From positions 1-11,090 of IMG/VR virus record IMGVR_UViG_2737471840_000003: a DNA stretch of 11,090 nucleotides. One strand, written 5' to 3'. This document shows positions 1 through 11,090 of the stretch, in pieces. The notes under the pieces were generated by a model. The model searched no databases and was not told the origin of the DNA. It saw only the letters and a list, made by a program, of their open reading frames with translations. The translations under genes were made by a program, and so were the position numbers. Each line of letters begins with the position of its first letter. Positions within the stretch are counted from its first letter, which is position 1. This DNA comes from a virus (Duplodnaviria; Heunggongvirae; Uroviricota; Caudoviricetes).

Positions 1-104
1 AATCATTCCCACTCAATTATTTACGAACAACATAACCAATTGACTGGTAACAACTTTCTTAAATATGATTTTTACCGTACCGTTTTATATACCGTCACCG
101 GAAA

Positions 105-593
105 TCAGTGACCCGCTTTCAGGGAGTCGTACTGTCGCTCGCATGTGAGTCCTGCAGACCGATATCGCTCAGCCTCTTCTGCTGTTGCGTTGTAAACTCG
201 GTTGCTTTCTTCAAGCATGTCGGCGAGCACACCGATGACCTTGCTGGCTGGCGTGCCAGTGGGGAAAGATCCGGTATAGTGTTCGGCGAGTCGCTTGGTT
301 TTGTCAAGCTCGGCGCGCAGGCCGTCAGCAGCGGCATTAGCATGCTCAGCGTCAACACGCGCCACATCGATACGGGATTGTGCTTCACGTTCAATTTTCG
401 TCTTCTCCTGATCACGTTGTGACCTGGCCTTATCATCAGCCTGTTTCTGGTCTGCCTGCGCCTGCGCATATCCGGCGTCGTACTGGCGGCTTCCATGAAT
501 ATTCCAGGCAACCATGCCGATGACCACCAGCGCAGCAAGCATTGCCACTATAAGCAACTGTTTCCAGTATGCTTTGACGAATTCCCAGATCAT
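105..593 (-). CDS. Putative Rz-type i-spanin (inner-membrane spanin subunit)
   Basis: 162-aa ORF directly after the endolysin; ATG at 593 overlaps the endolysin stop as ATGA (590..593). It has an N-terminal hydrophobic segment ([18 protein letters not shown]) followed by a charged, coiled-coil-like region rich in Q/A/D/K/R/E, and another ORF with a lipobox is embedded in a second frame. Possible SD AAGG 9 nt upstream. Confidence 0.7.
119..367 (-). CDS. Putative Rz1-type o-spanin (outer-membrane lipoprotein), embedded in Rz in another frame
   Basis: ATG at 367..365 opens [17 protein letters not shown]: a short basic n-region, a hydrophobic core and a lipobox-like LTAC. The mature part begins Cys-APSLTKPSDSPNTIPDLSPLARQP and is proline-rich. 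It lies wholly inside the Rz ORF, as in lambda Rz/Rz1. The start is uncertain (alternative Met codons at 343 and 337) and there is no clear SD. Confidence 0.5.
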   Translation of the reverse strand: MWRVLTLSMLMPLLTACAPSLTKPSDSPNTIPDLSPLARQPARSSVCSPTCLKKATEFTTQQQKRLSDIGLQDSHASDSTTP

Positions 594-1216
594 AACAGCG
601 CCTTACGGGCAGCACCGTAACGCGTCCGCCGGTCGTCGATACCGTTCTGTCCACCGTTAATGATCTGCGTGACGCGAACCAGGTCACCTGTGTACTTCAT
701 GCAGCCTTTGGTGGCGAAGAACCACGCCGCGCTACGAGCCGCGTATTCGTCCTGCGCCAGCAGTTCAGGATTCTCCAGCAAGTCAACTTTCAAGCCGTTT
801 CCGCAGTCACGATAGTTATTCAAACCGGTAATCTGGATAAGTCCGCGACCTCGGTAATTCCAGCCATCGCCGGGGGCATTGTTCCCCATGCGTTTGCTGT
901 ACACCAGATTGGCGATCGCTCGCTGGCGCTCGAGTGGCAATGGTGGCTCACCAGCACGTCGCCCCAGTGCATTAGCCTGCCCCTGAGTGAGACGCCCAGC
1001 CCGAACGAAGTTAGCCAGTCCGCTGACGCTGTAGTTGAAATTCTCCTGCAACCGGGTGAAGCCCACAGACTCATGCCCGACCTGAGCAATAAACATTGCC
1101 AGATCTTCTGGTTTGCTGATACCAAACTCTTTCATCGCAGAAGTTATATGCGAGAACCAGCGTGCGGCCAGCGCCTCGCTAATACCAGCAGCTCGCTGGA
1201 ATTGTTTAATCTCCAT
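590..1216 (-). CDS. Endolysin, glycoside hydrolase family 19 (chitinase-like lysozyme)
   Basis: The translation from ATG at 1216 begins [53 protein letters not shown], which matches the N-terminal pattern I recall for phage GH19 endolysins (QF..A.G.S...A..W...L..AM.EF.I.....A.F.AQ..HES..F), followed by [18 protein letters not shown] lies 6 nt upstream. The track ORF 590..1381 starts at a TTG and its first 55 codons overlap the upstream membrane-protein gene, so I shortened it. Confidence 0.9.
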
Positions 1217-1514
1217 GTTTAGACCTCGATATTTTGAAAATCTGAACAACGTTACCGCGTGTTTTAATAACCGCGGCAAGCATGACAGCGTTGATAATGA
1301 CCTCAGATAAATCCACAGCCATTGGCGTGCGTAACCAGATTGCATAAGCGACACGAACTGGAATGCTGGCCGCAGCAACAATCAGGAAATAAGCAAGCCA
1401 CCCACCCCATCGCCTGTGTTGAGAACCGTTTCTCCGAAATGTGGCAACTCGAACTGCTATACCGGCGCAAATAACCGCATTGGTGGTAAGCAAAAAAAGC
1501 TCATGAGTTACCAT
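1206..1514 (-). CDS. Small membrane protein, putative holin (lysis cassette)
   Basis: 102 aa with an ATG start at 1514 and a strong SD (GGGGAG about 8 nt upstream). It has 2-3 hydrophobic segments ([51 protein letters not shown]) and a charged C-terminus. Its 3' end overlaps the endolysin start by 11 nt. The function is assigned from position and topology only. Confidence 0.65.
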
Positions 1515-1905
1515 CGTCTTTTCTCCCCGGAATTAACTCGCGTGGATTATCGGAACGGTGATAGAGCCAGATCCCAATTCGCACAGCGACGATTGCTGAC
1601 ACAAATGCACCGGCAGAGAAAACAATCCCTTTCTCGAAAGAATCCTGTGTGATTGTAGGGATCAGGCTGGCTATGCCGATAAGAATTGATGCTGCTGGTT
1701 TGTAGAATAGAAGTCCGCAGAGAAAGCTAAGCATCGACAAGAGCACGCGACGACGAATTGGATACTCAACGGCAGAGGTAATAAATATTACCGCGCCGGA
1801 TAAAGCACCAAGAGCGACCTCTGGAGGAACCCCGGCAATGACAGCAGCCAGAGAACCCATGCTAAGCCACTGATTTAAAGACTCACTGGTTAGCTGAGCT
1901 GACAT
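1501..1905 (-). CDS. Membrane protein, putative holin or antiholin partner (lysis cassette)
   Basis: The track ORF 1501..1914 starts at GTG; the first ATG is at 1905 with GGTGG 5 nt upstream, giving 134 aa. It has about four hydrophobic segments and a charged C-terminal tail ([19 protein letters not shown]). A second Met at residue 16 (MGSLAAV..) sits just before the first TM segment. It overlaps the next membrane-protein gene by 14 nt. Confidence 0.55.
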   Translation of the reverse strand: MSAQLTSESLNQWLSMGSLAAVIAGVPPEVALGALSGAVIFITSAVEYPIRRRVLLSMLSFLCGLLFYKPAASILIGIASLIPTITQDSFEKGIVFSAGAFVSAIVAVRIGIWLYHRSDNPRELIPGRKDDGNS

Positions 1906-2001
1906 ATCAGCCACCGTTTACTGTGCATAATGAACCCCCTTAGTTGGTAAGTCCATCATACACAATAAACCATATATGGATAAGTTTACCTCGGATAACT
2001 C

Positions 2002-2030
2002 TTAACTAAATTACCTTATGGGTATATATT
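2002..2030 (+). promoter_or_regulatory. Candidate sigma70-type promoter for the acyltransferase gene
   Basis: TTAACT (2002..2007), a 17-nt spacer, then TATATT (2025..2030), about 50 nt upstream of ATG 2079 in a very AT-rich divergent intergenic region. Hexamer matching only, and AT-rich DNA gives many chance matches. Confidence 0.3.
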
Positions 2031-2078
2031 GTAGTTAATGATTGTGGAACCCATTAAAAATATTGGATAAATATTAAA

Positions 2079-3068
2079 ATGAATGAGAAGAACTATGGTG
2101 TAGTTTTAGCTCGTTTCATCGCCATTGTGCTGGTGGTGTTGCTGCATGTTGCTGCTGGTCCAGTTGGTGCAAAGTCTTCGCCTGATTGGGATTGGGCTAA
2201 CGTATATAGTGCCATATCAAAGCAATGCATTGGTATTTTCATAGTTATAACAGGGTTTCTTTACTACCATAAAAAGAAATTCGAATTCTATGATTACATT
2301 AAAAAGGGGTTTAATGTATTATTTGTCCCTCTTGTATTTTGGTGGGTAATATATGCATCTTATTACATTATATTTAAAGATGCTTCCGTAAGCAGCTTTA
2401 ATATTATGAAGCCATCTGCTGTCCATCTATGGTTTATGTATCATTATATTGCGATTTACATGTTTCTCCCGATGATAATTATTGGATGCCAACGCATGGA
2501 TTTGCGGTATAACGTGATGATATTTTTAATTCTATTCTATGGGAATTCTGTACACCCACAGCTAAAGAATTTCATTCCTAATGCACCATCTATAGATATT
2601 CCATTTGTAAGTACATTAATGTTCTATATTTTTGCCGGATGTATAGTTGCAAGACTTGAAAGCCATATCATAAAATTACGCGCTTTCATTTCGTTAACTG
2701 CTGTTATCCTTGCGGTTATATGTGTCTTTACAAATAAGGCTATATTGATTCATGGGATCAAAGGAGTAAACCTAAGCAACTTTAGCCCCATTGTTGGCAT
2801 GACAGCAATAGCAACAACCTGCGCCTGCATTGGATACGCAGACAGAATAAGCAAAAATGCAAATAAACTTGTAACTCTAATTTCCGAATATGCATTTGGA
2901 ATTTATCTTATACATCCTATTATTATATTTATAACATGGAAAATAGCTCCAGTATCAAATTATGCATGGGGAATACCTGTTGCAACTATATTTTATGTCT
3001 TTGCGTCCATGTTGATAGCTGTGATACTTTCAAAAACTCCTTTGTTAAATAGGGTGATAGCCAAGTAA
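2079..3068 (+). CDS. Acyltransferase family 3 integral membrane protein, probable O-antigen/polysaccharide O-acetyltransferase (lysogenic-conversion moron)
   Basis: 329-aa ORF that is hydrophobic throughout, with about 10 predicted TM segments. The N-terminus (YGVVLARFIAIVLVVLLHVAAGP) carries the conserved Arg and His positions I associate with acyltransferase-3 enzymes. Its length is close to short phage Oac-type acetylases. It lies on the opposite strand to all flanking phage genes, is very AT-rich (about 27-32% GC on hand-counted lines), and ends at a bidirectional terminator. Confidence 0.8.
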   Translation: MNEKNYGVVLARFIAIVLVVLLHVAAGPVGAKSSPDWDWANVYSAISKQCIGIFIVITGFLYYHKKKFEFYDYIKKGFNVLFVPLVFWWVIYASYYIIFKDASVSSFNIMKPSAVHLWFMYHYIAIYMFLPMIIIGCQRMDLRYNVMIFLILFYGNSVHPQLKNFIPNAPSIDIPFVSTLMFYIFAGCIVARLESHIIKLRAFISLTAVILAVICVFTNKAILIHGIKGVNLSNFSPIVGMTAIATTCACIGYADRISKNANKLVTLISEYAFGIYLIHPIIIFITWKIAPVSNYAWGIPVATIFYVFASMLIAVILSKTPLLNRVIAK

Positions 3069-3097
3069 AAAAAAAGCCCCTCTACGGGGCATTTTTT
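3067..3097. terminator. Bidirectional rho-independent terminator between convergent acyltransferase and tailspike genes
   Basis: An A-run (3067..3075), a stem GCCCC (3076..3080) / GGGGC (3086..3090) with loop TCTAC, then a T-run (3092..3097). It reads as hairpin plus U-tract on both strands. It overlaps both stop codons. Confidence 0.65.
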
Positions 3098-5780
3098 AAA
3101 TAGCAGAAATAATGAAACATAACATCTCATCATATCTCAAAGAGTAACCATCACCAGCTTCGCAACCTGAGAATGTCATGATTCCATTTTCATCATATTC
3201 TGGTTCCTTCTTATCCCACTTATCGTAGCAAACCATCCCATAACGCATGGGATCTAGCCCTTCATCCTCGAACGCAGAGATAACATCCTGGACAATTGCA
3301 CCTATATGATATCTTGCGCCATCGCCTTTAATAGCTACCGCATCCTTCATTCTGTACCGACAAATCATTCCCTTAATCTTGATAGCCACGCGCTTTTCGG
3401 CTTCACTTATATCCTCGAAATCTGTCTTCTTTCTTCTGTCAGATGTGTTAATGGAACCAGAATCGGCGTAGACCTGAGTCCATTTAAATGATGCACTCCC
3501 GTTAGACTGCGCGCTAGCGACGCCAGGCAATACCTGATCACTGTAAATCTGAAGAGATTGAGTCCCACCACTTTCACTTGTCACTGTCGGATTTGTGAAG
3601 AAGAAAATAGCATTAGGGTTTAAAGTACCCCCTGAGCCGATAACAAGAGGCGTAGAGGTACCGGTATAGTTTATTTGAGCGATGCCAACTTCTTTTCCTG
3701 TTGACGTTGTAAATGATATTTTGCCTAAACCACCTGAATTATTAATATTAAGCTTTGTTCCTGACAATGAGCGCCTTGTAGCTGTCCATGACCCAATGCT
3801 GCCAACTACGGAATAAATTTCTAGCCCAAGTACAGTACCGGAGGATTCAATAATGAATCCTGCATTGTTCAGATTAGTAACATGGTAAATTTGTCCTGTT
3901 ACGTAGTTAAGACCAGGTATCGTGGTGAGCGAAGGAGCAATGGTTGAAAACCAAGAGAACTCAGTTATGTTTAATGAAGCCATTAAATCAAGAATTTGAG
4001 AAACACTGCTGAAGACTGTATTTAAGACTGGATCGCGCAATTCCCCACGCTCCGAACGCATGAGCCTATTAAATCCATATGTTGGGAGAGGACAATATCC
4101 GGAAGCGGCATCCAGCATGTTAAATCCATCCCGTGAAAACTCCCTCATTATAACAATGCCATTGGGTGTGCTAGGAGATGATTCAGCCATATCACCGATA
4201 AGAATTGAATGGATAGTGCCGTCAGGGTGCTTGAAACATCCCTCTGACTCTGTTCTTGAGACGGTGCAACCGTTTGATGCCAGATAAGTCATCAACTTAT
4301 CTGATTTCACAACAGAGTGGTCTATTAACTCACCAGAGAGTGACACTCTGAGGACTCCGTAATCATGAACAGGGTATTTTGCATCATCAAATGTAGGACG
4401 ATAACTGCCACCTACGCCTATATGAAGGATCCCATTTTTGTATGCTATACCCTGAATTTTCCATACCATGTAATAGTAGGTAGGGGAGAGCTCTGGAGTT
4501 GCAAACCCTGTAAGCATCTGAGAGACATTTATTGTTCCCTGCTTCTCACCTGTATCAAGACGATAAGAATTTATAACAGTCTGTGATTGTGACAATCCTA
4601 CTGGTGTCGCGTTTAATGTGCAGAAGAGTAAATTACCATCAATGCACATATGTGATCCAGCCGACTGAATTGTCGTTATTGTGTGCCCTGAAAGCGTGCT
4701 ACCTGCTGCGGGTAATGTGGTTATGTCATAATAATAAACAAAATCATCCCCAAGACGTCTGTCATACAATCTACGTGATGAACTTCCGCCATATATAGCC
4801 ACAGACTGATTACTACTGTTTGGACTATAAAACCACGTTACTTGCTCTCCTGCCTGGTTATAAACAACTATAACCCTAAGCGCCCCTCCAGCATTAGGCA
4901 CATAGTTAATGAAGAGTAGACCATCATCATCATAGTCAGCACCCTGCGGGTATATGATGCTTCCAGCTCCAATTGCCGCCAGTGCATCAGAATACCCATC
5001 GAACTGAAATGGAAGTTTGTAGATTATTTTTTTCCTGAAATTCTGATCTTTAATGGCACTACCAACAGTACCGTCAGGATACTGGATAGAATCGCTATAA
5101 CCTGATAACCCGGCACCTGTTGGTTTCACTAATTCAACAAGAACATCAGTGGCAGAACCAGATGGCGGCAATGTTACAAAAGGAGACCCACTATTATCGA
5201 AGGCTATTATCTTGTTCGCCCTGACAGCGGCAGATGGAAGTGTGGGTATAGGTTCAGGTGTTCTTAGCGTTCTGTTGAGATTGGTTTCAGAAATACTGTC
5301 TACATAGTTCTTTGTAGCAGCATCTTGCGGCCGAGATGGATCCCTGAGATTTCTGATATAGTTGCCCAGGGCGTCATAATAGTTGGCTACAAAGGATGGT
5401 TTTCTTAACGACAGACTAAACCAACTTCTTACCTGCTGAACAAGCATAGTTAACTTATCAAATGCATCCTCATGCACTTCTGCAAAAAACTTCCCCTGGT
5501 TCCTTAGGTCTGTTTCTTGGGTAACCGGCAACTCTCTTGAAATAGAAATCTTATACCCATTGCCTAAAGCAGTTGATAAAACAACATTCCCCCCCGTGTA
5601 TCCACCAGTACCTGTAATCGAATAATCAGTATCAAGCACAAGAGTGGTTATATTTTCATCCAGATCAACAACCTGCACAACCAGGTCTGACTTCTGAAAA
5701 ATTCGAAAGGTATAAGGAAATGAAGTCGTAACGCCATTACCTGTATATTCGTTATGGTCAACTTCGGTTGAGACCGTCAT
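3096..5780 (-). CDS. Tailspike / tail fibre protein with C-terminal intramolecular chaperone (peptidase S74-like) domain
   Basis: 894-aa ORF with ATG at 5780 and SD GGAG 9 nt upstream. The N-terminal roughly 120 aa (MTVSTEVDHNEYTGNGVTTSFPYTFRIFQKSDLVVQVVD...) resemble the conserved particle-binding module of epsilon15-like tailspikes as I recall it. The C-terminal 115 aa begin SDRRKKTDFEDIS and contain YHIGAIVQDV, which fits the S74 autoproteolytic chaperone pattern. The central part is Ser/Thr/Gly/Asn-rich and looks beta-rich. Confidence 0.9.
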   Translation of the reverse strand: MTVSTEVDHNEYTGNGVTTSFPYTFRIFQKSDLVVQVVDLDENITTLVLDTDYSITGTGGYTGGNVVLSTALGNGYKISISRELPVTQETDLRNQGKFFAEVHEDAFDKLTMLVQQVRSWFSLSLRKPSFVANYYDALGNYIRNLRDPSRPQDAATKNYVDSISETNLNRTLRTPEPIPTLPSAAVRANKIIAFDNSGSPFVTLPPSGSATDVLVELVKPTGAGLSGYSDSIQYPDGTVGSAIKDQNFRKKIIYKLPFQFDGYSDALAAIGAGSIIYPQGADYDDDGLLFINYVPNAGGALRVIVVYNQAGEQVTWFYSPNSSNQSVAIYGGSSSRRLYDRRLGDDFVYYYDITTLPAAGSTLSGHTITTIQSAGSHMCIDGNLLFCTLNATPVGLSQSQTVINSYRLDTGEKQGTINVSQMLTGFATPELSPTYYYMVWKIQGIAYKNGILHIGVGGSYRPTFDDAKYPVHDYGVLRVSLSGELIDHSVVKSDKLMTYLASNGCTVSRTESEGCFKHPDGTIHSILIGDMAESSPSTPNGIVIMREFSRDGFNMLDAASGYCPLPTYGFNRLMRSERGELRDPVLNTVFSSVSQILDLMASLNITEFSWFSTIAPSLTTIPGLNYVTGQIYHVTNLNNAGFIIESSGTVLGLEIYSVVGSIGSWTATRRSLSGTKLNINNSGGLGKISFTTSTGKEVGIAQINYTGTSTPLVIGSGGTLNPNAIFFFTNPTVTSESGGTQSLQIYSDQVLPGVASAQSNGSASFKWTQVYADSGSINTSDRRKKTDFEDISEAEKRVAIKIKGMICRYRMKDAVAIKGDGARYHIGAIVQDVISAFEDEGLDPMRYGMVCYDKWDKKEPEYDENGIMTFSGCEAGDGYSLRYDEMLCFIISAI
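3099..3443 (-). other. Predicted S74-type autocleaving chaperone domain of the tailspike (C-terminal 115 codons)
   Basis: Begins at the Ser codon (3441..3443) of the SDRRKK motif and runs to the last sense codon. By analogy with endosialidase and T5 L-shaped fibre chaperone domains, cleavage is expected at this Ser. Confidence 0.6.
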
Positions 5781-5834
5781 GTTAAATCTCCAGATAGTCG
5801 CAGCACCCGTTGCGCCGCATATCCGGTTATTCTA

Positions 5835-5899
5835 TTACCTGAAAAACCACATATGGATAGATAAACCATAAATACGAACAGATATTACCTTTCAGGTGA
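5835..5899. promoter_or_regulatory. Inverted-repeat element in the divergent intergenic region upstream of the tailspike
   Basis: TTACCTGAAA (5835..5844) and TTTCAGGTGA (5890..5899) are inverted 10-bp arms with one mismatch, 45 bp apart. The right arm also forms a local hairpin ACCT-TTC-AGGT (5887..5897). They sit 55-120 nt upstream of the tailspike ATG. Function unknown. Confidence 0.3.
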
Positions 5900-5975
5900 T
5901 TCGCAAAACGTGCTGGATAGCAAACAAATTATTTGCTACTGTATAAATATACAGTTATTGCATGGAGAAGATAAG

Positions 5976-6233
5976 ATGCAGCAGTATCACTATCCACTGG
6001 AAGACGGATTTACCGAAAGGATTCACACGCCGGGAGGCGTCAGGTCACTGGTGGAGGGATCGCACTTGATGAAATTACTCCGGGATCTCGATAAGGATGG
6101 ATTTAATGTCGATGGCCCACTTGCCGAACTGACTGCACTGATTAACTACGTCACCAGCTCACAGATGTCTATGCAGGATCTGCAAACACATCTCGACTAT
6201 TGTGCCGAACAATTACGAAAACAAATCCGGTAA
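5976..6233 (+). CDS. Hypothetical small protein (85 aa), orphan plus-strand gene between virion genes and tailspike
   Basis: ATG at 5976 with SD GGAG 8 nt upstream. The track ORF 5910..6233 starts at GTG with an implausible N-terminus. A TGTATAAAT element at 5940..5948 is -10-like. GC content matches the phage core (34/60 on line 6001). Stop TAA is at 6231..6233, followed by the hairpin at 6241..6256. I recognise no family for MQQYHYPLEDGFTERIHTPGGVRSLVEG.... Confidence 0.5.
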   Translation: MQQYHYPLEDGFTERIHTPGGVRSLVEGSHLMKLLRDLDKDGFNVDGPLAELTALINYVTSSQMSMQDLQTHLDYCAEQLRKQIR

Positions 6234-6240
6234 ATTTAAG

Positions 6241-6256
6241 GGCCGCGAAAGCGGCC
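6241..6256. terminator. GC-rich hairpin, probable terminator for the convergent small genes and the upstream virion operon
   Basis: GGCCGC-GAAA-GCGGCC is a perfect 6-bp stem with a GNRA-type loop. On the minus strand it is followed by CTTAAATTT, a weak U-tract; there is no T-run on the plus strand. It lies between the stop of the 85-aa plus-strand ORF and the stop of the 46-aa minus-strand ORF. Confidence 0.4.
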
Positions 6257-6276
6257 TGTGACATGTCACACTCAAG

Positions 6277-6417
6277 CTATGACAAACCTATGTACCCTGC
6301 TACACCAGATAATATCAAAACAACTGCTACAGCAAATTCACCGTCTTCAATGATACATTTACGATTCATAACGCCAAGGGCAACAAGCACAAATACAACA
6401 AGAATAAAAGCAATCAT
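6277..6417 (-). CDS. Unannotated 46-aa two-TM membrane peptide (not in the ORF track)
   Basis: ATG at 6417 with SD AAGGA 6 nt upstream; the SD overlaps the TAA stop of the 824-aa gene (minus strand reads CCGCAA-TAA-GGATGAGAA-ATG). My hand translation is MIAFILVVFVLVALGVMNRKCIIEDGEFAVAVVLILSGVAGYIGLS, with stop TAG at 6279..6277. It shows two hydrophobic segments separated by a short charged loop (NRKCIIEDGE). Confidence 0.4.
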   Translation of the reverse strand: MIAFILVVFVLVALGVMNRKCIIEDGEFAVAVVLILSGVAGYIGLS

Positions 6418-6426
6418 TTCTCATCC

Positions 6427-8901
6427 TTATTGCGGAGTGACATCCTGAGGTCGCCACCAGTATGTCTGGTTAAACTCTTTCTTCGAACGTTGCTCCATTT
6501 TACGCAAATAGCCTGGTGAAAAATACTCCTGCATCTGGTTAAAGATCATGTGATCGAGAGCCGCCTTCAAGTACCAGAGATTCGCACCTGGCATCAAACC
6601 TTTCCCCAGCTTCACCAGATCACCACCAGTCTGCTCACTCTTCCCTTCCACAGCATTTAACGGTATGCCCTGAGCAATCTTCACTACGTCATCAACCAGA
6701 CCAGCCACCGGGCCAAGCATCGACGCCAGCGCGCCGCTTCCGTACCTAGTGTGATCTGACAATAAAAAGTCACCGTAAAGGCCAAGACCACCACCTTTCA
6801 ATAGAGCACCAAGCCAGAATTTTGCGGCATCTTCTCCTGTCATCTCGCGAGGATTACGACCAGACGCAAGGTCGTTAAGTTGCTGCGACAAAGCTCCAAG
6901 AATGGTCGTACTGGCAATAAACGTCGCAATATATGCCGCACGCCCACCAGCAGACGGCATACCCATAGCGCGTGACCAGTGACGCATAACCACCGAGATA
7001 GGGAACGATTTAAACAGGAAAACACTTCTCGTTAATTCACCTTTCCATGTTCCACGCTGAATACCAGAACCGGTTATCAGTTGCTCACGTGCTCCCGGTG
7101 TAATAACAGCCATATCAACTTCTTCAGTTACGGCACCGAGCAGTTTACGCATTGCCTCAAATTTCACGCGTTCAGGCTCACCAAGATGTTTAACTGCTGA
7201 ATCAGGGATACGCATAATGCTTTCCGGTGTCAGCATCGTATTATTACCGTTCCCCCAGTCCTCCTGTTGCGCCAACTTCCATACGCTCCAGTCTGTGTCA
7301 GTAATCCCTTTGCTTTTCAGGATACGAAAATCAGAGTCATCGAGGCTACGAAGGCCTGGTGTCCGTGACACTACTTCTCCCAGGCTTCCCATCATGGTTA
7401 CGCCATAGGCGCGCTTGTGCGCATCTGACCATGCTGTAAGCCCACTGGCACGCATTACCGCCGTTGCAGCCCAACGAGACACAGACGGCCCCATATTATC
7501 CATCGCCCAGCGGTTAACGCTGCCAAGTAGAGATTCCATCGCCAGACCAGCGCGGCGCGCCCGCGCAAGCTCAGTACGGTTCGTTGGGTCCATAGCTTCA
7601 AGCTGGTTGCGGAATAACTGGTTCATCGGAAGGTTGGTCACCTTCGCAGACAGATACATGGTTCCAAGATCAGAGAACGATGACAGCAACGCGGATCCGA
7701 GTCTGCTGGCAACCAGCCAGTTGCGGATATTGTCAGACCATCGCGCGATGTGCGGATTCGCTACAGGCTGTGTCTTTCCGGAAATAAAGTTGTACAGATT
7801 CTCTGTGTTGTTCGCCAGCCGCTCGACTTTACCGGTTTTACTCGGGTTAGCTGTTGCCGTTTCTGCCTTAACCTGATCAAGAAGGGAGCGGAAAACATGA
7901 TCGGGGTTTGGACCATATGTTTCCACCAGAGCAATATCTTTACTGATACCTTCCAGGTGACCGACCATGATTTCCCATAGAGAGCGATCGCCATAAAGTT
8001 GTTGATATTGGAGATAGGAATCTGCATCTTTGAAATGTATCTGTCGTGATGCATTACCACGGTTAGCACGTGCGCCGGAAATTCGCATTCCGGTATCAGT
8101 AAGCTTATTCAGCCCACCAGTAGCGATCGTGTTATAAGCCTCTCCAAGAAATGCAGACAACTCGGCATCGTTCATCAGTTGTCCATCGGCTCGGGTATAA
8201 TATTTGCGATCCAGCTTACCTATAACATCGCTAACCCATTTATCTTTTGATACCGCACCAACCTTTTCCATAGAATGATGTTGAGGGATCCCCCAGTTTT
8301 CGAGATAGCCAATGTCCCCACCAGCATCATTAAACCGGCGGCGCAGCAGCTCTGTAACTTCTCTCCACGCCTTAGCACCTTTTCTTGCTTTAGCATTGCC
8401 AGTATTTTGCCCCCGCATTTCATATACCAGGTCACGTACGCCCGCTTCATCTTCAAACAGACCAAAAAAGCGAGGATCAACTGCTTCGAATGCCTCCTGC
8501 AATTGACTCAATGCATAATCACGGGTGGCTTTTGTTCTGGATTCAACAGAGAGGAAATTAGATTTACCGTCTGCATTAAAAGCTATAGTACGGTTAAGAG
8601 CGCCAAGTTTCCCATCAGCCCCTTGATAGCTATTGATAAATTTATCCAATCTCTGACGCGCGGCTATAGTGAGAGCCACACGACGTTTCTTTAATGCCGC
8701 TTCTCGCTGTAATTCTTCAGATGCCAATTGTGCTGCTCGATATAGCCGCTCTGATTCGGAAAGTTGTCGCCACGACATCGGGTCATCACGAGCAATGGAG
8801 CGCATATTTCGATAAATGCGGTCTTCAATGTTTTGTATTTCTCGCGCCGTTAAAGTGCGCTGCGCCGCCTGCTGGACCGCTTGTATACATTCCTGTCTCA
8901 T
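6427..8901 (-). CDS. Large virion protein (824 aa), putative internal core / ejection protein
   Basis: ATG at 8901 with SD GAGG about 11 nt upstream, 5 nt after the stop of the 600-aa gene. It has a helical, charged N-terminus and C-terminal Gly-rich hydrophobic stretches (AAYIATFIASTTILGAL, FWLGALLKGGGLGLYGDFLL, LASMLGPVAGLV). No enzymatic motif recognised. The function is inferred from size, composition and position upstream of the tailspike. Confidence 0.8.
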   Translation of the reverse strand: MRQECIQAVQQAAQRTLTAREIQNIEDRIYRNMRSIARDDPMSWRQLSESERLYRAAQLASEELQREAALKKRRVALTIAARQRLDKFINSYQGADGKLGALNRTIAFNADGKSNFLSVESRTKATRDYALSQLQEAFEAVDPRFFGLFEDEAGVRDLVYEMRGQNTGNAKARKGAKAWREVTELLRRRFNDAGGDIGYLENWGIPQHHSMEKVGAVSKDKWVSDVIGKLDRKYYTRADGQLMNDAELSAFLGEAYNTIATGGLNKLTDTGMRISGARANRGNASRQIHFKDADSYLQYQQLYGDRSLWEIMVGHLEGISKDIALVETYGPNPDHVFRSLLDQVKAETATANPSKTGKVERLANNTENLYNFISGKTQPVANPHIARWSDNIRNWLVASRLGSALLSSFSDLGTMYLSAKVTNLPMNQLFRNQLEAMDPTNRTELARARRAGLAMESLLGSVNRWAMDNMGPSVSRWAATAVMRASGLTAWSDAHKRAYGVTMMGSLGEVVSRTPGLRSLDDSDFRILKSKGITDTDWSVWKLAQQEDWGNGNNTMLTPESIMRIPDSAVKHLGEPERVKFEAMRKLLGAVTEEVDMAVITPGAREQLITGSGIQRGTWKGELTRSVFLFKSFPISVVMRHWSRAMGMPSAGGRAAYIATFIASTTILGALSQQLNDLASGRNPREMTGEDAAKFWLGALLKGGGLGLYGDFLLSDHTRYGSGALASMLGPVAGLVDDVVKIAQGIPLNAVEGKSEQTGGDLVKLGKGLMPGANLWYLKAALDHMIFNQMQEYFSPGYLRKMEQRSKKEFNQTYWWRPQDVTPQ

Positions 8902-8906
8902 TTAAT

Positions 8907-10709
8907 TTAACCTCTCAAGAAACACGCCACAGCGACATCAAACAGGCTGGAATCCTGTATTGCCTGCTCACTTTCCCTGTTCGCTTCATCCAGTACTTCA
9001 CGCGCGCTGCGCGATTGTGGATTACCATCATCATCCAGCACGGTGATTATCATGTCAGGTGATTCAAGCAGCGAGTCTTCAGCTATGCGCAGATCAATAT
9101 CTCCTGCCGGATCTGCCATCATTTTTTGTTCTGTCTGTTGCAATATCTTACCGGGCTCAAAAGGAGCTACTTCGTCTGGCGTCCTGACCTCTGCTGTTTT
9201 ATAGAATGAAACAGCCTGAGCATTAAGTTCACTTTCTGCCTGCTGTCGTCGTGCCAGTTCTGCTCGAGCTTCAAAAAACTGACCGCCAGGCTCATGCGGT
9301 GCCAACGCGTTACGGGAAAATTCCAGGCGCTCTTGTGCCTGCCGGATTCGTTGGTCAATATCGCGAAGTCTGACCTGTTTATCTGATCGAGCACGAGACA
9401 AAGCTTTACCGCTACCGGTTGGCTCTTCTGCAAGAATTTGTGCGCGCTGTTCAGTGAGATTTTCAATAATTCGTTGGCTATTAGCGATTTCAGACTGGTA
9501 AACCTGTCTATCGCCACGCGGCAAAAGCTGCGCGGCCTGTTCTTCAAGCAACCGATTTTCTATAGCGCGCGCCGTTACTCCATCATCTACAGATGACAGA
9601 GCCTCATTAACTGCCTGAGACAGCAGACTCTTGCGCCCAGGAATTTCACTGAAAGATGCAGACTCAACAATGCTGGCAACGTCTACAGGTCTCCCCTGGC
9701 TAACATCAGACATAGCTTTTCGCAGAGCCTGAATGTGAGAATTGCGCGAAAGCACGTTGATCGGCACGCCGGGCGCAATATCAATTTCAGCATGATGAGC
9801 GGCATTCGCCGCCAGTGCAGCATCAACATCAACTGGTGAAAAATTTGGTGCGCTTGTAGACTCGCCGCGAGAGTTCATAAATCTGCCGACACCACCAAAC
9901 GCCACCCCAAGAACAGCATCAATAGCAATTGCCTGTCGATCCAACACATCATACTGGTTAGCCATTTCGCTATAGCCACCATCACGAAGCGTTTTTGCAG
10001 TAAGCCCACGCTGTGCCATACCGAACGCAATATTTGTACCTGCGGCATAGGCAATATCTGGCGTTGCACGTACTGCTGTTGCTGCGGCGCGTCGCACTGA
10101 ACTTTCACCCGTCCGCGCAAGCTGGGCCGCCACACCTTCCGCCAGCGCACCACCAGCACGTAACCCGAGGCTCATAGGGATCAGTGTTCCGGCACCAGCA
10201 GTAATACCCTGCACTAATCCCGCTTCCTGCGCCGTCCTGAAATCAACACCCTGTGCTGTCAGCCGTTCAAACTCAGAAAAACCCTGTAGAGAAGTTACCG
10301 CCGCAGCACCTCCGACCGGACCACCGAGCGTTGTACCGACAACAGCCTGCCCTCCCATATCGAACAACCCATAAAGGACCTGCCCGGCGGTTCCGGTTGT
10401 CGCGGCATCAGGCGTCAGCCGCTTAACCTGCTGCTCTGCTAGTTTTCTCTGCTCAGCAATGTATGAAACTGAAGTGTCATTAAGCGAGGTGTTTTCGTTA
10501 ACAAACTGAGCAATCGGGGATACGATTTTATCCATCCCTGCCCATAGCAACTGATCTGGCTTTGCCACCAGCCCGGAGTACAAACCAGACAATGCCGCTC
10601 CTACAGCATTGTCGAAAAAACCAACATTGCTGTTAAAGCCAGCTGGATTTGATGCTGCTTCGTCAAGCTGCTGATTCTGGCTTACTGGATTAAGGCCAAA
10701 GTAACTCAT
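8907..10709 (-). CDS. Large Gly/Ala-rich virion protein (600 aa), putative internal core / ejection protein
   Basis: ATG at 10709 overlaps the upstream gene's stop as ATGA (10706..10709); GGAG lies about 10 nt upstream. It has long Gly/Ala-rich low-complexity stretches (VVGTTLGGPVGGAAAVTSL, GITAGAGTLIPMSLGLRAGGALAEGVAAQLA) and a charged helical region (EQRAQILAEE...RQAQERLE). No enzymatic motif recognised. Confidence 0.8.
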   Translation of the reverse strand: MSYFGLNPVSQNQQLDEAASNPAGFNSNVGFFDNAVGAALSGLYSGLVAKPDQLLWAGMDKIVSPIAQFVNENTSLNDTSVSYIAEQRKLAEQQVKRLTPDAATTGTAGQVLYGLFDMGGQAVVGTTLGGPVGGAAAVTSLQGFSEFERLTAQGVDFRTAQEAGLVQGITAGAGTLIPMSLGLRAGGALAEGVAAQLARTGESSVRRAAATAVRATPDIAYAAGTNIAFGMAQRGLTAKTLRDGGYSEMANQYDVLDRQAIAIDAVLGVAFGGVGRFMNSRGESTSAPNFSPVDVDAALAANAAHHAEIDIAPGVPINVLSRNSHIQALRKAMSDVSQGRPVDVASIVESASFSEIPGRKSLLSQAVNEALSSVDDGVTARAIENRLLEEQAAQLLPRGDRQVYQSEIANSQRIIENLTEQRAQILAEEPTGSGKALSRARSDKQVRLRDIDQRIRQAQERLEFSRNALAPHEPGGQFFEARAELARRQQAESELNAQAVSFYKTAEVRTPDEVAPFEPGKILQQTEQKMMADPAGDIDLRIAEDSLLESPDMIITVLDDDGNPQSRSAREVLDEANRESEQAIQDSSLFDVAVACFLRG

Positions 10710-11090
10710 TGCGGAATATCTCCGGAGAATCTCTGACGTTTCTGTGTCAGATTAAGAACAACGGGAGAACCATCATCTTTCAGCAGATAACCAGTACCAA
10801 GTTTCACCAGGTACTGACTATCGCCGTAACTTTGCAAACCATACTGACCAGGCGGTGTTTTTATCCCGGAGCCGACAACTTGTTCATTCCAAGCCTGATT
10901 AACCTGCTTATCGAATTGCTCTGCAGACATTCCCCACGGCAAAAGGACATTCCCCATTCCGTTATAGTCATGCACGCCACCTGTAGCTACGTTAACAGCC
11001 TGTTTCCAGACATCATTGTCAATTTCGCCTGATACCACGCCTTTTTTCGCCATCACGCCAGCGTAATAGTCCTTTGCGATCTCGTATGCC
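10706..11090 (-). CDS. Phage late-operon protein, probably 5'-truncated at the window edge
   Basis: The track ORF 10706..11056 starts at a GTG. The same frame stays open with no stop up to the window edge (..AYEIAKDYYAG-V-MAKKGVVSGEID..), so the gene may begin beyond 11090. An internal ATG at 11053 has only a poorly spaced AGGA 19 nt upstream. Product unknown. Confidence 0.55.
   Translation of the reverse strand, partial: AYEIAKDYYAGVMAKKGVVSGEIDNDVWKQAVNVATGGVHDYNGMGNVLLPWGMSAEQFDKQVNQAWNEQVVGSGIKTPPGQYGLQSYGDSQYLVKLGTGYLLKDDGSPVVLNLTQKRQRFSGDIPQ

Follow-up and report, generated by a model that had tools for sequence, protein, structure and literature searches.

The tailspikes of the Uetakevirus phages epsilon15, phiV10 and PAS61 have already been described as modular proteins, in which a conserved anchor carries O-serogroup-specific domains that are exchanged horizontally (PMC10408124); neither propeller heads nor the O28ac/O42 types are among those described in that survey. 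The heads of these proteins decide which strains a phage infects, and what is known about spikes for O-antigens comes almost wholly from beta-helix enzymes. Beta-propellers have been recognised in surveys of Klebsiella, in which this type accounts for 18% of the prophage "depolymerases", and the role of the fold in phages has been called unclear (PMC12491483). Here we describe the tailspike gene found in positions 1-11,090 of the Caudoviricetes virus record IMGVR_UViG_2737471840_000003 (11,090 nt, hereafter the window). On sequence grounds the gene is a three-part mosaic, made of a virion anchor, an exchangeable centre and a C-terminal Peptidase_S74 (S74) chaperone, and its centre is predicted to fold as the five-bladed propeller of Gp45, the receptor-binding protein (RBP) of the Staphylococcus phage phi11.

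The gene is real, intact and under selection. The preliminary description of this DNA had given its coordinates (3096-5780) exactly and had omitted the strand: the gene lies on the minus strand, and the translation of the plus strand in the same interval is full of stops. The product is 99.6% identical to an NCBI protein annotated 'tail fiber domain-containing protein [Escherichia coli]' (P0001), and the ratio of nonsynonymous to synonymous substitution rates (dN/dS) of the central block, measured against the homologue P0002, is 0.07-0.22, indicating purifying selection on this block.

The centre of the protein (aa ~246-650) found no match in the Pfam, NCBIfam or PDB sequence libraries and a single one, 22693, in PHROG; moreover, a word-indexed protein search returned only 12 relatives. 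An exhaustive HMMER search with aa 230-650 against 1.84 billion representatives (E<=1e-3) gave a family of 202 cluster representatives, nearly all matched across the whole query of ~400 aa (query 14-419) and belonging to proteins of 350-1400 aa with differing ends around the module. The AlphaFold2 (AF2) model of aa 220-660, built on an alignment of 102 family members, is a confident five-bladed beta-propeller, with a predicted local distance difference test (pLDDT) of 92 and a predicted template modelling score (pTM) of 0.90; its blades are four-stranded and it is closed by the N-terminal strand, as in the platform of phi11 Gp45. When this fold was compared by Foldseek with the PDB, places 1-9 were taken by the fibres of phi11, 80alpha, NF5 and P68, and the best match in BFVD was the tail fibre of Staphylococcus phage vB_SscM-1, with a query TM-score (TMq) of 0.83 over 432 columns, alpha/beta subdomain included. 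As modelled, the centre is a phi11 Gp45-type five-bladed propeller with an alpha/beta subdomain. The preliminary description had noticed that the repetitive pattern of a right-handed beta-helix is absent from the centre, which holds, and had considered its fold unknown, a view that the model now supersedes. A right-handed beta-helix depolymerase was in fact among the candidates that we discarded, as no beta-helix or pectate-lyase-type Pfam match was found and the confident model is a propeller; an SGNH domain was searched for in the tailspike with Pfam and NCBIfam, and none was found.

By tblastn, the propeller block alone was found in 31 phage records, which fall into two groups. One consists of phages of E. 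coli, Salmonella and Erwinia, namely the HC8A-type of 47 kb, the Kayfunavirus LI10P1, U8, ZCEC02, PBM-2/3 of 73 kb and Erwinia phage UCB24; the N4-like phage EK8, found with the full-length query, has the module too. The other consists of phages of Gram-positive hosts, the Twort-like myophages of Staphylococcus and Mammaliicoccus (E 2e-18, 95% coverage, 23-24% identity) and Weissella phage phiYS61, and, since matches at this level reach Gram-positive phages, the module is common to both sides of the Gram divide by sequence and not by fold alone. Within the family, a near-identical block made of propeller, stalk and S74 was observed on three different anchors, in HC8A (L001, 47 kb), in the T7-like Kayfunavirus LI10P1 (L002) and in the N4-like Schitovirus EK8 (L004). 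A further member, the metagenomic protein P0047 (1395 aa), carries the propeller module at aa 358-776 and, after it, a GDSL/SGNH esterase domain at aa 824-1034.

The exchange of the centre can be followed at the DNA level. The window comes from a temperate podophage of the epsilon15/phiV10 type (Uetakevirus), of which it covers the late-gene end; outside the cassette its DNA is 93-98% identical to phiV10, PAS61, HEMP4 and related phages; the genes flanking the tailspike are also 93-98% identical to those of phiV10 and PAS61, in unchanged order. The homology to phiV10/PAS61 stops at 1991-2027, just upstream of the acyltransferase gene oac, and resumes at 5245-5303, corresponding to aa ~160-180 of the tailspike; therefore, the replaced unit consists of oac and the distal part of the tailspike. 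The GC content is 34% in oac, 42-44% in the tailspike and ~50% elsewhere. The window oac occupies the position of phiV10 oac, yet the two products have only 26% identity, and the terminator listed in Table 1 sits in the 27-bp gap separating the two convergent genes.

Two homologues were compared with the window protein domain by domain (Table 1): P0005, encoded by the same prophage type at the same site, and P0002, encoded on a siphophage-like chassis (tape measure, Tail_spike_N). The homology with P0002, as with P0006-P0009, begins at aa 209-228 of the tailspike. In P0005 (L017, 6001-9699) the central block is saturated for synonymous substitutions (dS) and both junctions are inside the gene, so that, judging from the alignment, its central block appears to have been precisely replaced. 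A convergent Acyl_transf_3 gene follows the tailspike in all three contexts, and its product is 98.5% (P0005) and 55% (P0002) identical to that of the window oac. On the P0002 chassis (L015, 8485-12237) the acyltransferase gene is followed also by a gtrABC-like set for O-antigen glucosylation, gtrA / glycosyltransferase family 2 (GT2) / Glucos_trans_II, and that prophage therefore has two serotype-conversion systems.

The mosaic nature of the tailspike, proposed in the preliminary description, was thus borne out by the homology of the anchor, the exchanged centre and the S74 C-terminus, although the limits of the parts had to be moved. The N-terminal ~120 aa had been regarded as a conserved attachment module; the conserved anchor is real, but anchor and neck extend over ~160-245 aa. 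The anchor matches PHROG 1640 (E 5e-145) and other tail-protein PHROGs, aa 1-154 match the tailspike N-terminus structure 28lx_A of PDB (E 6e-25), and homology was found with epsilon15 gp20 and phiV10 p25: the N-terminus is 75-79% identical to the SPN1S and phiV10 tailspikes over aa 1-227/236, and 68% to that of epsilon15 over aa 1-282. What had been considered a single unrecognised centre of ~650 aa resolves, instead, into the propeller with its alpha/beta subdomain (~246-665) and a generic stalk (~666-779). The latter was matched by the C-terminal parts of 7Y5S, 6eu4, 4uw8 and 9vvr, and by PHROG 7121 (aa 646-893). In particular, over the region of aa 608-894, the C-terminus of 7Y5S, the beta-helix depolymerase of Klebsiella phage Kp7 (PMC12737672), matched query 608-891 with E 6.8e-23. 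The low pLDDT of the stalk is expected, because a trimeric stalk was modelled as a monomer. By these matches, stalk and chaperone are a generic module common to other S74-bearing fibres.

For the C-terminus, the S74-like signature pointed out in the preliminary description was confirmed, since both strings quoted there are present in the translation, SDRRKK at aa 780-785 and YHIGAIVQDV at aa 824-833, and the Peptidase_S74 profile of Pfam (PF13884) covers aa 780-842 with E 5e-10 and 40 bits, the curated cut-off being 22. The chaperone of phi29 gp12 (3GUD) aligns with E 1.6e-21, its first residue, Ser, with S780 and its residue 6 with K785, which places the Ser of SDRRKK in the position of the nucleophile, with a Lys at +5 in the S-D-x-R-x-K motif at the start of the domain, and gives a released piece of 115 aa, as had been predicted. 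Since the motif is conserved, we infer that the protein would cleave itself between T779 and S780; it would also trimerise. About a quarter of the propeller family (38/160 by motif) has an S74 chaperone.

The hosts of the element point to a possible receptor. Among 5426 complete E. coli genomes the cassette occurs in three, E47 (bovine, China), C6 (river water, Panama) and JML285 (human, Japan), always in the same element, a prophage adjoining yfgI, and a blastn search for more distant alleles in the complete E. coli genomes found none beyond these. The O28ac/O42 gene cluster occurs in seven of the 5426 genomes, and all three carriers are among them (hypergeometric P ~1e-9, or ~1e-6 if E47 and C6 are counted as one lineage). 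Along 6.8 kb of flanking chromosome, one single-nucleotide polymorphism (SNP) separates E47 from C6, and 31-32 SNPs (~0.46%) separate JML285 from both; because of this divergence, at least two host lineages are represented. O28ac and O42, whose clusters are almost the same, cross-react (PMC4732683), JML285 has been typed Gp2:H8 (PMC8209727), and receptor-binding domains in Uetakevirus are O-serogroup specific (PMC10408124). Thus, the receptor, unknown in the preliminary description, can now be proposed from host co-occurrence, and the spike is probably specific for the O28ac/O42 O-antigen. The galF-gnd cluster of JML285, annotated O28ac/O42, encodes a TagD-like cytidylyltransferase, a TarF-family glycerophosphotransferase, Glf, two GT2 and an acyltransferase, from which an O-antigen substituted with glycerol-phosphate is predicted. 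Strain NCTC9699 has this cluster too. In the cluster of JML285 the wzx flippase gene (L007, 23921-25151) is annotated as a frameshifted pseudogene, which may be due either to a nanopore assembly error or to a real O-antigen defect in the lysogen.

To describe the possible binding site, conservation was counted over 156 aligned family members. No variation occurs at Q443, E511, G457 and G475, and little at E513 (99%), K441 (97%), P278 (95%) and Q279 (89%). Position 325 (window 4806-4808) is Glu in 81% of the family, and Gln in the window protein and in its closest relatives P0001-P0015. Matching local motifs are found in phi11 Gp45 (M164-Q165, P-M-Q330-G-I and E385-A-E387-G), where the counterpart of position 325 appears to be T211; this position, thus, varies among E, Q and T. 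In Gp45, Q165, T211 and Q330 have been placed around a modelled N-acetylglucosamine (GlcNAc) cavity at the centre of the propeller (PMC4901313). In our reconstruction the conserved residues would begin the innermost strands of blades 1, 2, 4 and 5, facing the central funnel, and their correspondence with the pocket of Gp45 is suggestive.

Taken as a whole, we consider it reasonably probable that this gene encodes a three-block tailspike recognising O28ac/O42 via the pocket of its propeller. By homology, aa 1 to ~160 (to ~245 with the neck) dock the trimer on the tail. In the model, aa ~246-779 would be the host-range block, with the propeller and its alpha/beta subdomain followed by the beta-stalk; the family-conserved residues Q279, Q325, K441, Q443, E511 and E513, of which the second is replaced by Glu in most members, would line a pocket at the centre of each propeller, and this pocket may bind the O28ac/O42 O-antigen. 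The S74 domain (aa 780-894) would drive the stalk to trimerise and, afterwards, release itself by cleavage at T779|S780, through S780 and K785. Finally, the convergent acyltransferase, by analogy with the annotation of phiV10 oac, could acetylate the O28ac/O42 O-antigen in lysogens, stopping superinfection.

On the other hand, several points weigh against this explanation. The alignment of the family profile with phi11 Gp45 by hhalign is not significant (probability 3.8%), and the assignment to the Gp45 type therefore rests on the fold and on short motifs; moreover, the same profile finds no propeller among the PDB sequences, where only the C-terminal chaperone and the stalk are matched. The pocket was placed from the order of the strands and from the phi11 paper, not from the coordinates of the model, and the glycerol-phosphate content comes from the genes of the cluster, not from the chemistry of the repeat. 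Three genomes, of at least two lineages, make up the host association, and the prophage is missing from four O28ac/O42 genomes. It could then be that the co-occurrence reflects a shared host ancestry, and that the target is the capsule, the enterobacterial common antigen, the core of the lipopolysaccharide or a protein. The three carriers are few, E47 and C6 are possibly one lineage (1 SNP in 6.8 kb), the prophage site is the same in all of them, which is compatible with vertical inheritance, and in P0005 an oac product 98.5% identical accompanies a central block that is only 58-76% identical. We regard such a different receptor as rather improbable, because the carriers come from at least two lineages and three continents, JML285 being 31-32 SNPs apart with a prophage backbone 97% and a cassette 99% identical to the window; because O-serogroup specificity of the Uetakevirus receptor domains is documented (PMC10408124, and the phiV10 and PAS61 annotations); and because an O-antigen-type acyltransferase accompanies the tailspike block in every case, the siphophage chassis included, where gtr genes are present as well.

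Whether the propeller binds or cleaves the O28ac/O42 O-antigen is a separate matter. The preliminary description implicitly assumed a depolymerase; however, the closest structural relatives are binders without reported enzymatic activity, and no match of the centre with a well-characterised depolymerase emerged. We lean towards an adhesin-type, lectin-like recognition, by analogy with the staphylococcal RBPs, because the pocket motifs are common to Gp45-type RBPs, for which binding alone is reported, because position 325 varies, and because one relative (P0047) adds a separate SGNH esterase. A true depolymerase, in which E511 and E513, with K441 and Q443, would be catalytic in the central funnel and the short-tailed phage would reach the outer membrane by cutting through the O-antigen, has in its favour the biology of short-tailed O-antigen phages and the invariant Glu pair E511/E513; it would represent a new O-antigen-cleaving class, with either glycosidase activity or phosphodiesterase activity on the glycerol-phosphate-bearing repeat. 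We keep it as the main alternative, though a tentative one, given that the same Q, Q and E-x-E-G motifs occur in phi11 Gp45, reported for receptor binding only, that Glu, found at position 325 in 81% of the family, is replaced by Gln in the subclade of the window, that a GH43-type Asp/Asp/Glu triad was not identified, that neither Pfam nor NCBIfam returned any enzyme match, and that the Klebsiella survey calls the role of the propeller fold unclear (PMC12491483). That the centre is an endosialidase (GH58), acting on polysialic acid or another sialic-acid polymer, is instead extremely improbable. In its favour, tblastn aligned aa 180/216-893 at 26-27% identity with tail proteins annotated 'endo-N-acetylneuraminidase' in U8, ZCEC02/08, PBM-2/3 and ST1UNAM, and the chaperone at the C-terminus belongs to the endosialidase type (3gw6, E 7e-6); but this chaperone fragment is the only part of an endosialidase that the window protein and its HC8A homologue match in PDB, no endoNF catalytic domain being hit, the model has five blades, no endosialidase appears in either of the fold-search lists, which are led by five-bladed RBPs of Staphylococcus phages, influenza neuraminidases reach only TMq 0.32, and the host genomes are O28ac/O42, with no link to K1 seen. 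This identity was rejected, since a six-bladed sialidase was found neither in the sequence nor in the fold searches. Finally, a broader and more speculative idea, which we consider unlikely as it stands, is that the module recognises or cleaves polyol-phosphate-type glycans on both sides of the Gram divide, used by Staphylococcus and Weissella phages on wall teichoic acid and by coliphages on glycerol-phosphate-substituted O-antigens like O28ac/O42, possibly even as an unrecognised class of phosphodiesterases or glycosidases using the E-x-E, K and Q pocket. If true, it would give a function to many uncharacterised 'beta-propeller depolymerases' of Gram-negative phages.

These results indicate that two probable annotation errors are being propagated. 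The label 'endo-N-acetylneuraminidase' on the coliphage homologues is apparently most simply explained by the shared S74 domain, the 'chaperone of endosialidase'. The label of PHROG 22693, 'glycerophosphoryl diester phosphodiesterase', led us to consider a GDPD (PF03009) identity, which was discarded, as Pfam found no GDPD in the window, SscM-1 or phiYS61 proteins; the label may derive from the N-terminal part of the SscM-1 fibre, which matches several other PHROGs of that name.

The O28ac/O42 type includes enteroinvasive E. coli serogroups. The spike described here links those of Gram-negative phages to the structurally solved staphylococcal RBPs, and offers a tractable case, with a rare O-antigen, a confident model, few pocket residues, natural alleles 58-91% identical, and a paired acyltransferase expected to switch recognition off. 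It could also serve as a reagent to type O28ac/O42 strains, or in engineering the specificity of phages or tailocins.

Table 1. Features of the tailspike and its convergent neighbour in the window, with the amino acid identity of each tailspike part to two homologues; domain boundaries are from the full-length AF2 monomer model and from sequence matches.
Feature	Residues (aa)	Position (nt)	Strand	Identity to P0005	Identity to P0002	Basis and remarks
oac, Acyl_transf_3 O-antigen acyltransferase		2079-3068	+			Pfam PF01757, E 1e-36; PHROG 3333, O-acetyltransferase
Bidirectional intrinsic terminator		3076-3090	both strands scored			perfect GC-rich hairpin GCCCCTCTACGGGGC, A-run on one side, T-run on the other
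Tailspike coding sequence	894 + stop	3096-5780	-			ATG start; open reading frame (ORF) list and translation
Peptidase_S74 intramolecular chaperone	780-894	3099-3443	-	100%	55%	S780 codon 3441-3443, K785 codon 3426-3428; AF2 pLDDT ~90
Beta-stranded stalk before the chaperone	666-779	3444-3785	-	58%	87%	strand-rich, low pLDDT as monomer
Alpha/beta subdomain, travels with the propeller, tower-like	551-665	3786-4130	-	63.5%	91%	AF2 pLDDT ~90, two helices and four strands; within the family alignment
Five-bladed beta-propeller (platform), putative receptor pocket	246-550	4131-5045	-	76%	90%	AF2 propeller aa 249-548
Neck/linker, site of exchange junctions	161-245	5046-5300	-	98.8%	45%	low confidence, partly helical in the AF2 monomer
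Virion anchor, epsilon15/phiV10-type	1-160	5301-5780	-	99.4%	26%	beta domain aa ~10-82, helices to ~143

As for the rest of the window, the gene order is Rz (with embedded Rz1), a GH19 endolysin and two holins, all on the minus strand, the Acyl_transf_3 gene on the plus strand, the tailspike on the minus strand, a small plus-strand gene and two large virion proteins. Within Rz (105-593, minus strand) a nested out-of-frame ORF with a lipobox (119-367, minus strand) resembles the Rz1-type o-spanin, as annotated in phiV10. In the ORF list the endolysin (590-1381, minus strand) begins at a TTG and has 263 aa, but its length in RefSeq and in phage records is ~209 aa (630 nt), and there it overlaps the holin; the real start codon, therefore, probably lies inside this ORF. 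At the 6233/6241 junction the Bro-N antirepressor gene of phiV10 and its neighbours (L012, 6195-7215) are absent, and the homology skips ~1 kb of phiV10. A hydrophobic ORF of 46 aa (6277-6417, minus strand; MIAFILVVFVLVALGV...), below the threshold of the ORF list, matches the putative membrane protein phiV10p21, with two transmembrane segments. In strain E47 (L013, 12939-14159) the transposase of ISKox3 (ISL3-family) lies directly upstream of the tailspike gene; no such insertion is found in the window, C6 or JML285. Promoter-like sites around the tailspike and oac were no more frequent than in shuffled sequence.

The closest described systems share with this spike different parts of its architecture. 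With the tailspikes of Uetakevirus (epsilon15, phiV10 and PAS61) it has in common the anchor, 68-79% identical, the place of the gene between the virion-protein genes and the oac-lysis block, in the same orientation, and the modular design in which serogroup-specific domains are exchanged horizontally (PMC10408124); it differs from them in the predicted five-bladed propeller, the stalk and the S74 chaperone, and in E15 and BUCT554 the epsilon15-type tailspike is annotated as a right-handed beta-helix protein. With the endosialidase-type S74 proteins (endoNF, phi29 gp12, T5 pb1 and Kp7 7Y5S) it shares the Pfam S74 domain, ~115 aa long and placed C-terminally after a beta-stalk, in which Ser and Lys are five residues apart in S-D-x-R-x-K. 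The upstream domain differs: endoNF has a six-bladed sialidase there, and Kp7 and gp12 have a beta-helix.

The staphylococcal RBPs phi11 Gp45, 80alpha gp61 and P68 gp17 are only ~11-13% identical to the window protein, with no significant profile match to Gp45. They have a coiled-coil stem and two tower domains, without S74, and act on Gram-positive hosts, where the receptor is the GlcNAc of wall teichoic acid; in the window spike, the predicted propeller is mounted on a Gram-negative podophage anchor, and the protein ends in a beta-stalk and a predicted autocleaving chaperone. The putative depolymerases with an 'n-bladed beta-propeller' of Klebsiella phages and prophages (DepoScope, TropiGAT) are similar in that a propeller replaces the beta-helix and in that they were recognised computationally (PMC12491483), but those surveys leave the number of blades, the link to staphylococcal RBPs and the receptor undefined, whereas the window spike has an associated O-antigen type. 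Thus, a modular tailspike for an O-antigen is of a known kind, and what is new here, as far as the model indicates, is a phi11-type propeller head on a coliphage spike.

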